Shown: positions 1,797 through 23,363 of the stretch, one piece after another
Layout of the letters: each line of letters starts with the position of its first letter
How positions within the stretch are numbered: the first letter of the stretch is position 1
Source of the DNA: Candidatus Harpocratesius repetitus
GTDB taxonomy: Archaea; Asgardarchaeota; Lokiarchaeia; Sigyniarchaeales; Promethearchaeaceae
Direction: 5' to 3'
Length of the DNA stretch: 32,000 bases
NCBI GenBank assembly: GCA_021498095.1
Contig: JAIZWK010000001.1
Coordinates: 4,020,001-4,052,000, forward strand
Made by a program: the position numbers and the translations under genes
The notes under the pieces: generated by a model
Database searches by the model: none
Told to the model about the DNA's origin: nothing
Seen by the model: the letters and a program-made list of their open reading frames with translations, nothing else

Positions 1797-2864
1797 GTGT
1801 TAGAAAATATCTTTTTAATATCATTTGAACTTAAAGATGGTAATCTCCATCCAAATCTTTCATCAACTTCTGCATCCATACAAAAAAAAAAGACATACAT
1901 TGCATATCCTGATGATGTTATATTAAATTCTTCGCATAATTTCATGCAGCTAATAAAATTGAATCAAGAAAGAGTTCTTCTTCAACATTACGAAAAAAAA
2001 TATTTTAATGATGATTTTCTTTATTCAAACATTAAAGCAATTAATATTCAAGACTTGAACATTCTTCTTGTACCTTTACCATATAGGCACGTATTAGGCA
2101 TTGTTTTTGATAAAGAAACAAACCCCTACGATTACAGAAACGAAATTGTTCGACTTTTGCTTGATTATGCACTCGAAAAGTATTTTTCTAAACCAAATAG
2201 TAATTATAAAGAAACTCTTTTACTGACATTATTTGTAGATCTTAGAAATTATGCTAATGAATCTCATCTTTTTAACAATAATCTGAATAAAATTAATTAT
2301 TTTCGAAATAAACCATACATTAAGCTTTTTGTATTTGGAATTGATTATGCAGGAAAAAGTTCTTTAATGCGTTTACTCTCTACAGGAAAATTTGATGAAA
2401 ACTTCTTTATTCCTACTAAAAAATTTCGTATTACTAATGTTTCATTAGAAAATGGTATAAATCTTACATGTTGGGATATGCCAGGACAAATTATTTATAG
2501 AGAAGATTGGTTAAGAGGAGCACAAGCAAGCAATCTCCTTGTTTTTGTGATTGATGTCGCAGACAGAAATCGATATGCAGAAGCTAAAGCCGCTTTTTGG
2601 AAAATGATCAATCTTTTTGATTTACAATATCTTCCATTAATTTTTTTAATCAATAAGATAGATTTACTAGAGAAACCAATAAATAAAGAACAAATAGAAC
2701 AATATTTTGAACTTTCAAAATGTACTGGCAGAGAAATTACAACAATTTGTACAAGTTTACCTACTCAAGAGGGAATCGATAAACTGAAGGACGAAATTTC
2801 CCGTATTGCTTCTCATCTATTGATGGTAAATGGAATTATTGGACCCTCTTCAATGGTTAGGTGA
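1797..2864 (+). CDS. Arf/Sar-like small GTPase with an N-terminal ~170-aa longin/uDENN-like domain
   Basis: G1 GIDYAGKSS, G2 PT, G3 WDMPGQ, VFVID strand, G4 NKID, G5 CTS. The N-terminal beta-alpha pattern (IFLISFELKDG...LLVPLPYRHVLGIVFD...EIVRLLLDY) is longin-like by eye only. Confidence 0.85.
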   Translation: MLENIFLISFELKDGNLHPNLSSTSASIQKKKTYIAYPDDVILNSSHNFMQLIKLNQERVLLQHYEKKYFNDDFLYSNIKAINIQDLNILLVPLPYRHVLGIVFDKETNPYDYRNEIVRLLLDYALEKYFSKPNSNYKETLLLTLFVDLRNYANESHLFNNNLNKINYFRNKPYIKLFVFGIDYAGKSSLMRLLSTGKFDENFFIPTKKFRITNVSLENGINLTCWDMPGQIIYREDWLRGAQASNLLVFVIDVADRNRYAEAKAAFWKMINLFDLQYLPLIFLINKIDLLEKPINKEQIEQYFELSKCTGREITTICTSLPTQEGIDKLKDEISRIASHLLMVNGIIGPSSMVR

Positions 2865-20661: not shown

Positions 20662-21015
20662 ATGAGTGAAAAAACAGAAAATTCTACTTCTCAAACATTA
20701 AATAATATTAATAACCATATGAAAGATCTTAGCAAACAAGATCCTAAGTGGATGCAATCTTTTGGGAATTTTATGAATCAAAGCAAAAAGGACGGAGCAT
20801 TAAGCGCTAAATTCAAAGAACTTATTGGAGTAGCACTATCTGTAAAAGCACAATGCGAGCGATGTATTGTGTGGCATGTTAAAAATGCAATTGATTTAGG
20901 AGCAACACGACAAGAAATCTTAGAAGCATGTGAAGTCGCTGTAGTAATGTCTGGTGGTCCTGGGTTGATGTACTTAGAAGATGTTCAGCGTGCTCTTAAA
21001 GATTTAGGTTTATAG
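20662..21015 (+). CDS. Carboxymuconolactone decarboxylase / AhpD-like protein
   Basis: GALSAKFKELIGVALSVKAQCERCIVWH...GATRQEILE...VVMSGGP (CxxC). Confidence 0.9.
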   Translation: MSEKTENSTSQTLNNINNHMKDLSKQDPKWMQSFGNFMNQSKKDGALSAKFKELIGVALSVKAQCERCIVWHVKNAIDLGATRQEILEACEVAVVMSGGPGLMYLEDVQRALKDLGL

Positions 21016-21061: not shown

Positions 21062-21130
21062 TATTTAATTAGAAATATATGAAAAATTCTTTTGGAAATA
21101 TCTGAATAATTCTTTTGGAAATTTCTGAAA
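21062..21130 (+). repeat. Three tandem 23-bp direct repeats upstream of the longin-HisKA-REC gene
   Basis: 21085-21107 AATTCTTTTGGAAATATCTGAAT and 21108-21130 AATTCTTTTGGAAATTTCTGAAA match at 21/23. A degenerate copy at 21062-21084 matches the first at 16/23. A TTTAAATTATA TATA-like box follows. Confidence 0.75.
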
Positions 21131-21203
21131 AGCTTTAAATTATATACGCACAGAAATTATATTTCCCAGTGAGATTGAATAATACATTTTTGAGGCAGAT
21201 CAT

Positions 21204-22493
21204 GTGATTTTGTTTAATTCGAAAATTTATCAGAATTTATGCGGATTTTTATGGATTCGTCCTTCAGGAGTACCTTATTTTAAATGGTTTTCGCCCGAAA
21301 ATACCCAAGAAACATGGAAAATAAATGATTTATTTTTCTCTGGATTCTTTAGCGCCATTTCTTCTTCAAGTGAAGTATTTTTTGGTGGTGATCCACTCCG
21401 ATATCTGGAATTTTCCCAATATAAAATTTATACTGAAAAAACTAAAAATAATGATCTGTTCGTTGTTATTGCAAAAAAAGAAACTCCTGAACAAATAGCC
21501 AAAACACTTCTAGAAAAAATGTTAGAACATTATTTTGATAGTAATTTAACTTCAATTCACGAAATTGAAGAAGATTACGGAAGTGTTCAAGAAAAATTCA
21601 TGCAAATTTTATCTGAGATTGAAAAAAATTGGAATAAAATAAAAAATAATAATATAGATAAAAAAAGGCAAGTAATTATTCCATTTTCAAGTGAAAATCA
21701 AATAAAATCTGAAAAAACTTCAAATTTAACAATTGGAAAAAATGGAATTCACCGTCAAGCAAAGAAAATAGCAGAATTGGAGCAAAAGTTAGGTGCTGTT
21801 AGCATTTTGGGGCGGACTATAGGTCACACATTAAATAATATATTGGCAACTATTTTGGGTAATGTAAATTTGTCTAAATTAGAAGTCTCTGAAAAAAGTG
21901 AAATCTATAAGAACTTGGATGAAACCGAATATGCATGTATCCGTGCTAGAAATCTCATTTTTCAATTATTGAATATATCAAAAAATATCAGTTCAGCGAC
22001 GTCTTCCAAAGAAATTGAATTGATTGCAAGAAAAAAAATGGAAGAAATTGATAATAATAAGAGCTATAACCTTCCAGATAATATTCAAGATAAAGCAAAA
22101 TCATTAGTTTTGGGCAAAGGATCAATTTTGCTGATGGATGATGATAAAGCGATCTTAGAAACTGGAAGAAAAATGATCAATAGATTGGGATACAAAGTCA
22201 ATACTTCAAAAAATTTAAAAAATGCCTTAGAAACTTATATTCAACATCAGAAGCAAGGAACTCCATTTGATGTTGTTATTTTAGACTTTTCTGCAATAGG
22301 AGGCGTGGGAGAATTTGGCTCATTAATTTGGAAATATGTAGATCCTAAAGTTAAAGCAATTGTTTCCAGTGGATATAGTGGGGATCCAATTTTTAATAAT
22401 TATCGAAAATTTGGATATAGTGGTGTTCTTAAAAAACCTTACAATTTAGGAGAGTTAAGCTTAATATTATCGCAAATAATAAATCATACATGA
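21204..22493 (+). CDS. Longin-like domain + HisKA dimerisation domain + receiver domain protein, lacking HATPase_c
   Basis: N-terminal LFFSGFFSAISSSSEVFFG...YLEFSQYKIY...LFVVIA (longin-like); H-box IGHTLNNILATILGN; receiver ILLMDDD...VVILD...IVSSGYS...LKKPY. No N/G1/F/G2 boxes. Confidence 0.85.
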   Translation: MILFNSKIYQNLCGFLWIRPSGVPYFKWFSPENTQETWKINDLFFSGFFSAISSSSEVFFGGDPLRYLEFSQYKIYTEKTKNNDLFVVIAKKETPEQIAKTLLEKMLEHYFDSNLTSIHEIEEDYGSVQEKFMQILSEIEKNWNKIKNNNIDKKRQVIIPFSSENQIKSEKTSNLTIGKNGIHRQAKKIAELEQKLGAVSILGRTIGHTLNNILATILGNVNLSKLEVSEKSEIYKNLDETEYACIRARNLIFQLLNISKNISSATSSKEIELIARKKMEEIDNNKSYNLPDNIQDKAKSLVLGKGSILLMDDDKAILETGRKMINRLGYKVNTSKNLKNALETYIQHQKQGTPFDVVILDFSAIGGVGEFGSLIWKYVDPKVKAIVSSGYSGDPIFNNYRKFGYSGVLKKPYNLGELSLILSQIINHT

Positions 22494-22532: not shown

Positions 22533-23363
22533 ATGGAATATCGAGATGAAACAACTGGAATTTTTTATCAAGTAGTTGGAGATGGAATCCCCGTTCTTTT
22601 TTTACATGGACTTGGAGTAGATCATCGAACTTTACAATTTATTTTTGAATCATTTTTCCAGAATCATCCAAAATTTTTATTCAAACGAATTTATTTAGAT
22701 CTACCAGGAATGGGAAAAACACCCACAAATCCAAATATTCGCACATCTGACGACATATTAAACCTTTTACTTAAATTTATTAAAAATACGATTGGAAAAT
22801 CCCAATTTATTCTTGTAGGACAGAGTTATGGCGGATATCTCGCTCAAGGGATAATGTATAACATCTCTATGTCTTTGATCGCTGCAATTCTAATTTGCCC
22901 AGTGGTAATTCCTGAAGTTGAGAAAAGAGACGTCCCAGATCGACAAATTATAAAGAAAAACTCTGTTTTTTTGGCAAGTCTTTCTAAAGAAGAGCGACAA
23001 GATTATTTAAAAAATACTGTAATTATTTCACCAGAAAATTGGAAAATTTTTTCAAAATATATTAGGTCGGCTTTTTCAACTGTAGATAAATCATTCATTT
23101 CAGAATTATTCCATCAACATTACCCATTTCTCAAAAACCTGCAAGATTTGAAGCAACAATATCAATTTCCGACCCTATTTCTACTTGGAAAGCAAGATTC
23201 CACAGTAGGATATAGAGATCATTGGAAAATCTTATCTCAATTCTCCCATGCTTCTTTTTTTATAATAGATATTGCAGGTCATAATTTATTAATTGAACAA
23301 GCATCTCTTATTTTTAACATTCTTGAATGGTATTTTAATCAGATCGAAAATATTACTAATTGA
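22533..23363 (+). CDS. Alpha/beta hydrolase
   Basis: FLHGLG, YLDLPGMG, GQSYGG, GKQD, AGHNL catalytic-triad motifs. Confidence 0.92.
   Translation: MEYRDETTGIFYQVVGDGIPVLFLHGLGVDHRTLQFIFESFFQNHPKFLFKRIYLDLPGMGKTPTNPNIRTSDDILNLLLKFIKNTIGKSQFILVGQSYGGYLAQGIMYNISMSLIAAILICPVVIPEVEKRDVPDRQIIKKNSVFLASLSKEERQDYLKNTVIISPENWKIFSKYIRSAFSTVDKSFISELFHQHYPFLKNLQDLKQQYQFPTLFLLGKQDSTVGYRDHWKILSQFSHASFFIIDIAGHNLLIEQASLIFNILEWYFNQIENITN

Follow-up and report, generated by a model that had tools for sequence, protein, structure and literature searches.

The stretch of DNA that was analysed, referred to below as the window, comprises 32,000 nucleotides (G000:C1:4020001-4052000) of the single-contig 4.36-Mb genome of Candidatus Harpocratesius repetitus, which has a G+C content of about 30%. 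It contains, on its plus strand, an open reading frame for a protein of 429 residues, in which an N-terminal domain of predicted longin fold is followed by a DHp/HisKA helical hairpin and a receiver, and in which the ATPase domain of histidine kinases is missing. A GAGG is located 10 nucleotides 5′ of the GTG start codon. The nearest named relative is annotated as "response regulator [Candidatus Harpocratesius sp.]", and the remaining relatives stem from Promethearchaeota (Lokiarchaeia) assemblies. The reading frame and its parts are:

21204..22493, plus strand: whole open reading frame, 429 residues, GTG start, stop codon included
21234..21641, plus strand: longin-fold domain, residues 11-146 (AlphaFold2 model, fold searches, alignment)
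21642..21740, plus strand: variable low-confidence linker, residues 147-179 (predicted local distance difference test, pLDDT, below 50 over residues 148-179; alignment columns variable)
21741..21995, plus strand: DHp/HisKA helical hairpin, residues 180-264, with the H-box GHTLNN and the codon of His208 at 21825-21827 (Pfam, NCBIfam, alignment, model)
21996..22112, plus strand: variable linker of about 40 residues, residues 265-303, at the place that HATPase_c occupies in hybrid kinases (alignment, low-confidence model, kinase comparison)
22113..22484, plus strand: receiver, residues 304-427, with D312, D313, D361 (codon 22284), S389 and K411 (Pfam, NCBIfam, alignment, kinase comparison)

A Pfam scan of the 429-residue protein yielded no match to HATPase_c (PF02518). 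In a pairwise comparison with a bacterial hybrid kinase of 549 residues, residues 194-260 aligned with residues 178-244 of the kinase (51% identity), and residues 304-427 aligned with residues 424-548 (47% identity). The spacing between the DHp domain and the receiver was 44 residues in the archaeal protein versus 180 residues in the kinase, and the shortfall of about 136 residues is, as judged from this alignment, the size of an entire HATPase_c domain. The NCBIfam models for CckA, for a VirA-like kinase and for PRK13557 each matched in two stretches, at about residues 193-269 and 280-426, which are the DHp domain and the receiver of those kinases, and the ATPase domain was skipped. In the full match set, the His and the DD of the receiver were 85-104 residues apart in the family, versus a median of 238 residues in 104 kinase homologues. 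A first-pass annotation of the window, which had been made from the sequence alone, had described HATPase_c as cleanly absent from between flanks that align with hybrid kinases, and the spacing and the colinear alignments bear this out. It had also stated that the protein cannot autophosphorylate by itself, which agrees with the lack of HATPase_c in all orthologues.

The range of the family was determined at several levels. Fourteen sequences of 410-445 residues, which share 38-87% identity with the window protein, could be aligned from end to end, and all statements about invariant residues below refer to this alignment. A profile search with the N-terminal domain, covering 1.84 billion representative proteins without restriction on length, retrieved only 22 clusters. 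Three distant ones (P0123-P0125, 378-443 residues) again had the order longin-HisKA-REC and lacked HATPase_c, the other examined clusters were stand-alone longin-like proteins or had other C-terminal regions, and an ATPase domain was present in none of the examined clusters. Overall, more than 17 sequences, which represent at least four genera, have this architecture. A census of 400 genomes of the phylum, with a family cut-off of E <1e-20, revealed the family in 10 of the 14 genomes of one GTDB family of the Lokiarchaeia, with one copy per genome and in four of its seven genera, and in 0 of the 135 genomes of the order's largest other family. The open frames of all members in the census were intact, and the spacing between His and receiver was short in all of them.

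These results bear on the possibility that the gene is the decaying remnant of a hybrid-kinase gene whose ATPase domain was deleted only in this genome. Nothing beyond the missing domain itself speaks for decay. The first-pass annotation had stated that its reading would be refuted if all orthologues retained HATPase_c, and this domain turned out to be missing from all of them. With more than 17 sequences in at least four genera, intact frames, single copies and invariant residues at the catalytic sites, a private deletion was rejected, and decay is refuted by the orthologue set.

The DHp hairpin, its predicted dimer and the receiver

The Pfam HisKA model matched residues 205-260 with an E value of 0.036, which is below the cut-off, and it scored above or near the cut-off in relatives. 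This weak match is backed by the 51% identity to the DHp domain of the bacterial kinase and by the predicted dimer interface described below. The first-pass annotation had placed the H-box His at codon 21825, and this residue is indeed His208. H208, N211 and N212 are invariant, and the motif of the family reads GHxxNN. The position directly after the His (His+1) is Thr209 in the window protein; in the counted family members it is T, A, N or S, with E in two. Of 109 kinase homologues with the same HxxNN motif, 102 have D at this position. AH[D/E]xNN is the reading of every one of the 17 other DHp domains of this type in the host genome, and GHTLNN that of the window protein alone. It has been shown with four HisKA kinases that the acid at His+1 is needed for the kinase and not for the phosphatase activity, and that the Thr/Asn at His+4 is needed for the phosphatase and not for the kinase activity (Willett and Kirby; PMC3510030). 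His+4 is N212 and thus invariant in the family. By these criteria, the family has lost the kinase-specific acid along with the ATPase domain, and has kept the phospho-His site as well as the phosphatase-specific residue.

The receiver was detected by Pfam Response_reg (PF00072) at residues 308-419 (E 3e-9, 37.5 bits versus a cut-off of 30.2). The acidic pocket residues D312 and D313, the phospho-acceptor D361, and S388, S389, G390, K411 and P412 are all invariant, in line with the first-pass annotation, which had listed the acidic pocket, the phospho-Asp, the Ser and the Lys. The end of beta-4 reads I-V-S-S-G-Y/F (VSSGY in the window protein). The aromatic switch position, which corresponds to Y106 of CheY and lies in beta-5 three residues before K411, is occupied by the nearly invariant V408, and not by Tyr or Phe. 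The motif FxSGY ("FATGUY") marks the intermediate receivers of the CckA type as well as the hub receivers MrrA and CpdR, and CckA-type intermediate receivers have a variable switch position and lack allosteric Y/T coupling (Bruderlin et al.; PMC9981736). V408 fits the latter finding, and the receiver of the window protein is, on the basis of its motifs, classified as the CckA "intermediate" type described in that study.

As the phosphorylation site of the receiver is fully canonical, it has to be considered whether the protein might be an ordinary response regulator. It would then serve a single cognate kinase, the DHp-like hairpin would be only a dimerising coiled coil, His208 would never be phosphorylated, and the longin domain would be the output, with its partner binding altered by phosphorylation. 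The annotation of the family as "response regulator" in databases conforms to this scheme, as do the conservation of the longin domain, which is the highest within the protein, and the protein-interaction role that was proposed for archaeal REC-PAS-HisKA proteins (Galperin et al.; PMC5847659). However, a mere coiled coil would not need H208, N211 and N212, which are invariant down to an overall identity of about 38%, and a receiver that has V408 instead of an aromatic switch is of the CckA intermediate type without allosteric change (PMC9981736). An ordinary response regulator is therefore a doubtful explanation, albeit the main contender.

The hairpin was predicted to form a homodimer, in which two copies pair via residues 181-262 with a heptad-like pattern on both DHp helices. 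The score was 0.54 versus 0.00 for the best of three controls, with a pLDDT of at least 65 and at least 34% of contacts shared between runs; as solved structures include many dimers of kinase DHp domains, this pass may rest on likeness to them and is not an independent proof. In the calibration, 20 of 30 proteins whose structures had been solved as same-chain pairs attained this mark, as did 1 of 23 that had been solved as single chains. The listed residues of the predicted interface include 206-207 and 209-210, and do not include His208, a pattern that would be expected if the side chain of the phospho-acceptor faces away from the interface in the model.

An ATPase-less DHp domain could also heterodimerise with paralogous hybrid kinases and poison their autophosphorylation in trans. 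Paralogues encoded in the host genome share 28-45% identity with the window protein in their DHp regions, which would be compatible with mixed dimers. A role as kinase inhibitor is nevertheless highly improbable, because a homodimer was confidently predicted, the helix-1 residues before the His are unlike those of all paralogues (RTIGH versus GGIAH), and the intact receiver would be left unexplained.

The longin-type N-terminal domain

At the sequence level the N-terminal domain is only weakly recognisable as a longin, the Pfam Longin model (PF13774) matching only 31 residues (83-113) with an E value of 0.11, below the cut-off. The assignment is based on structure prediction. An AlphaFold2 model of residues 1-146, built from the 14-sequence alignment, had a pLDDT of 83.5, a predicted template modelling score of 0.81 and the topology bb-a-bbb-a-a. 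An exhaustive structure comparison revealed Sec22 as the top match (Z 12.6, root mean square deviation 2.7 Å, 123 residues aligned), followed by a CPLANE subunit (Z 12.2), VAMP7 (Z 12.1), Bet5 (Z 11.8) and AP-3 sigma (Z 11.6). The longin matches span the whole model and start at residue 1-2 of the target, and Foldseek agreed on the fold (TRAPPC4, TM 0.69/0.74). Roadblock proteins (MglB, LAMTOR2 and Asgard roadblocks) matched with Z 9-11 over residues 7-118 only. The model thus identifies the domain as a longin at the fold level, the assignment at the sequence level being weak, and the whole-length matches to Sec22, VAMP7, Bet5 and TRAPPC4 uphold the longin-like N-terminus of the first-pass annotation. 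The "coiled linker" that it had placed behind this domain is mostly the variable low-confidence region 148-179, and the long first DHp helix then follows.

The N-terminal domain is the best-conserved part of the protein, with a mean column identity of 59% and many invariant aromatic residues, which points to a conserved interaction. Only distant relatives found with its profile matched Fuz_longin_1, and they did so weakly, with E values of 8e-5 to 0.01 that are below the cut-off. A features search of the ESM Atlas with the domain yielded unnamed archaeal clusters and one "Roadblock/LAMTOR2" cluster (0.88), in which 22% of the members have Fuz_longin_1, and this is regarded as a lead only.

Several proteins with related N-terminal domains were observed in the course of these searches. 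Distant relatives of the domain occur in proteins of about 260-270 residues and of 391 residues, the C-terminal regions of which had no Pfam match (P0126-P0132). In another protein (P0122, 286 residues), which has no H-box, an almost identical longin domain is followed by a helical tail of another kind. Elsewhere in the host genome, two adjacent minus-strand open reading frames of 170 and 157 residues (L003 815-1845; G000:C1 near 2780183-2781213) look like stand-alone longin-type domains; the former shares the motifs PSGVPYF...SGFFSAL with the N-terminal domain of the longin-DHp-receiver protein, and the latter ends in a C-terminal (MEK)n repeat. A protein of 403 residues (L002 727-1938; G000:C1 near 1069129-1070340) matched the profile weakly (E 1e-3), and the match is followed by a long low-complexity region rich in Asn, Gln and Pro and by a short C-terminal region.

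Two-component complement and gene neighbourhood

The host genome encodes about 17 DHp-bearing kinases, ten of which are hybrid kinases with a C-terminal receiver, and four other kinase-less receiver proteins of 130, 224, 228 and 278 residues. No match to Hpt (PF01627) was found in the 429-residue protein or anywhere in the host genome, which is 93.6% complete by marker genes. ChpT of Caulobacter and Spo0B of Bacillus are dimeric DHp-type four-helix bundles that have a phosphorylatable His and no kinase activity, and they shuttle phosphate between receivers. By analogy, the ATPase-less DHp protein is the obvious candidate for serving the receivers of ten hybrid kinases that have no conventional HPt partner. 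Across the order, Hpt matches are mostly CheA-sized, and stand-alone HPt proteins are rare. A separate partner protein that consists of an ATPase domain only was also considered and was rejected, as both small HATPase_c reading frames of the genome carry a HisKA domain of their own. An additional observation was a hybrid kinase gene that is broken within its ATPase domain by a TAG stop codon (L041 450-2183; G000:C1:1634449-1636182). The resulting reading frames comprise 344 residues with HisKA, and 228 residues with the C-terminal part of HATPase_c and the receiver, and the interruption may reflect a pseudogene, an error of sequencing or read-through.

The gene for the 429-residue protein is preceded on the same strand by a CMD-family gene (20662-21015, gap of 188 nucleotides) and followed by an alpha/beta hydrolase gene (22533-23363, gap of 39 nucleotides), and the short second gap suggests co-transcription with the hydrolase gene. 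The trio of CMD gene, longin-DHp-receiver gene and hydrolase gene lies on one strand in five genomes, i.e., in the window and at the loci L005, L006, L007 and L008 (orthologues with 48-55% identity), and downstream of it an Smr gene and a gene for a TPR protein of about 690 residues are found. The trio is not kept at the distant members, and the hydrolases beside two of them are unrelated to that of the window. The contexts of distant members included a convergent PAS-HisKA-HATPase-REC hybrid kinase gene in one case and a convergent MFS transporter gene in another. The trio was therefore rejected as a guide to functional partners and is treated as synteny.

The region 5′ of the gene contains one further feature:

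21069..21137, plus strand: tandem repeats, three units of 23 nucleotides (TTrGAAATwTmTGAA...), with the palindrome GAAATTTC, directly 5′ of the TATA-like TTTAAATTATATA

The three units read TTAGAAATATATGAA.., TTGGAAATATCTGAA.. and TTGGAAATTTCTGAA.., respectively, and the AT-rich TATA-like element is situated about 60 nucleotides 5′ of the open reading frame. Looser strings resembling TTGGAAA..TTTCGAAA are present upstream of the orthologues at L005 and L008. The repeats and the TATA-like element are possibly the binding site of a regulator and the promoter of the gene.

The first-pass annotation had tied the protein to longin/small-GTPase networks, and this is not reflected in the gene order. 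No GTPase, roadblock or longin gene was a conserved neighbour across the examined loci, and the Arf-like GTPase gene of the window (1797-2864) is 18 kb away. The latter encodes an Arf-family GTPase domain at residues 172-335 (E 1.5e-25). About 170 residues without Pfam match extend the protein N-terminally of this domain, a region that the first-pass annotation had called longin/uDENN-like. The tie is thus based only on the roles of longins elsewhere. It is tempting to speculate that phosphate from the hybrid kinases, arriving at His208/Asp361, switches the binding of the longin domain to an Asgard small GTPase or to a trafficking-type partner. Such a phosphorylation-gated adaptor is quite unlikely; if it existed, two-component sensing would be wired directly to eukaryote-like membrane/GTPase machinery in an organism closely related to the ancestor of eukaryotes.

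A putative kinase-less phosphotransfer node and its known counterparts

From the residue pattern it is proposed, with a probability of roughly 55%, that the protein is a dimeric phosphotransfer/phosphatase node without kinase activity, whose His208 and Asp361 pass phosphate to and from further two-component proteins. It would have originated from a CckA-type hybrid histidine kinase that lost its ATPase domain and had its PAS sensors replaced by a longin fold. The protein would dimerise via the four-helix bundle of its DHp domains, would not use ATP, and would swap phosphoryl groups with its partners through the two residues. Its mode of action might resemble a phosphotransferase of the ChpT/Spo0B type that is fused to an intermediate receiver of the Spo0F/CckA-Rec type, and the phosphatase function of the DHp domain would be retained. 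As no HPt domain was found in the host genome, the ten hybrid kinases are likely to act as donors, through either their C-terminal receivers or their DHp domains. The longin domain would be a partner-binding module that sets or reads out the phosphorylation state. The first-pass annotation had already envisaged a phosphotransfer or phosphatase hub; the loss of the acid at His+1 and the invariant Asn at His+4 fit this part of its proposal, the linkage to a GTPase network being the part that found no support. The fold, the order of the domains, the missing ATPase domain, the conserved residues, the predicted dimer and the phyletic range are results of the analysis; the phosphorylation of His208, the direction of flow, i.e., relay or sink, and the partners are to be read as predictions.

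The direction of flow leads to a related explanation, namely that the protein is purely a phosphate sink. Its receiver would drain the hybrid kinases, its own DHp domain would hydrolyse the phosphate with the aid of N212, and signalling would be ended or dampened. The invariant phosphatase residue at His+4 and the lost kinase residue at His+1 speak for a sink, and no downstream output regulator was linked to the gene in the examined neighbourhoods. However, the strongly conserved longin domain would be left without a role, unless it gates the sink. A pure sink is thus unlikely, and it overlaps with the proposed phosphotransfer/phosphatase node, from which it differs only in net direction.

Several observations weigh against the proposed exchange of phosphate through His208 and Asp361. 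The His might be conserved solely for structural reasons or for phosphatase activity and might never be phosphorylated, and the two orthologues with Glu have retained an acid at His+1. Most Lokiarchaeia with hybrid kinases yielded no member of the family. A distribution complementary to that of stand-alone HPt proteins was considered and rejected, as one genome (G133) has both and two genera (g2 and g7) have neither, and the family is therefore not a general HPt substitute. A hybrid kinase gene was adjacent in only one of nine contexts examined, in convergent orientation, and is not a conserved neighbour. Lastly, the protein is not unique within its genome, because a second DHp protein without recognisable HATPase_c is encoded (L040 287-2008; G000:C1:4179286-4181007). 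It has 573 residues with three PAS domains, HisKA and then about 110 unassigned C-terminal residues, and its H-box AHDLNN has kept the Asp at His+1.

The statement of the first-pass annotation that the architecture had not been described was too strong, as both of its ingredients have been reported. Archaeal "HisKA, no HATPase" proteins were described by Galperin et al. (2018; PMC5847659), who suggested roles as phospho-acceptor, in phosphotransfer or as phosphatase, and who reported four RHH-HisKA-REC proteins in Lokiarchaeum GC14_75. The latter resemble the window protein in the order HisKA-REC, the conserved His, the missing ATPase domain and their occurrence in the same class of archaea; in a comparison by description only, the RHH-HisKA-REC and "HisKA, no HATPase" proteins differ from it in that their N-terminal domain is RHH, PAS or GAF and not a longin. 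Liu et al. (bioRxiv 10.1101/2020.10.19.343400) reported that Asgard archaea have proteins in which an NPRL2-like longin domain is fused with domains of two-component systems. The joining of a longin to bacterial-type two-component domains in Asgard archaea is thus shared, and the longin of the window protein best matches SNARE, TRAPP, AP-sigma and Fuzzy longins and not specifically NPRL2. No paper was retrieved by a full-text literature search that combined longin, histidine kinase, receiver and Asgard, the figure and supplements of Liu et al. being outside its reach. This specific longin-DHp-receiver family may therefore be uncatalogued, even though proteins of this kind are not new.

The present analysis contributes the delimitation and range of the family, evidence for the fold, the His+1/His+4 contrast, the class of the receiver and the genome-level context. 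The value is moderate, since each element had already been reported and the proteins occur only within a single archaeal family. Asgard archaea combine two-component signalling of the bacterial type with large eukaryote-like families of longins, roadblocks and small GTPases, and the cross-talk between them is a wider question. The family offers a compact, single-copy and well-conserved example of a longin on a phosphotransfer core from which kinase chemistry has clearly been dropped, with the phospho-His site, the phosphatase residue and a receiver of the shuttle type retained. As a tractable soluble protein, it could be used to ask whether DHp-only proteins replace HPt in archaea that are rich in hybrid kinases and devoid of HPt, and also what an Asgard longin domain binds.

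Three known groups of proteins are closest to its parts. With the eukaryotic and Asgard longins (Sec22, VAMP7, Bet5/TRAPPC4, AP sigma, and the Lokiarchaeote structure PDB 8yqg) the modelled N-terminal domain shares the topology bb-a-bbb-a-a over its whole length (Z 8.8-12.6), but the sequence identity is only 7-19% and the gene has no SNARE, GTPase or adaptor context. ChpT and Spo0B, to which no sequence match of the window protein was seen in general searches, both keep a degenerate ATPase-like domain, and neither has a fused receiver or longin. The CckA-type hybrid kinases (NCBIfam NF046020/NF046026; PRK13557 family) have in common with the window protein an H-box of the HxxNN type, a DHp domain and a receiver that are colinear with those of the bacterial member, and the xSGY motif of the CckA receiver. 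The scores of the window protein are far below the cut-offs of these families (46 bits versus 1000), and it differs from the CckA-type kinases in that it has neither HATPase_c nor PAS sensors nor the acid at His+1, and carries an N-terminal longin domain.

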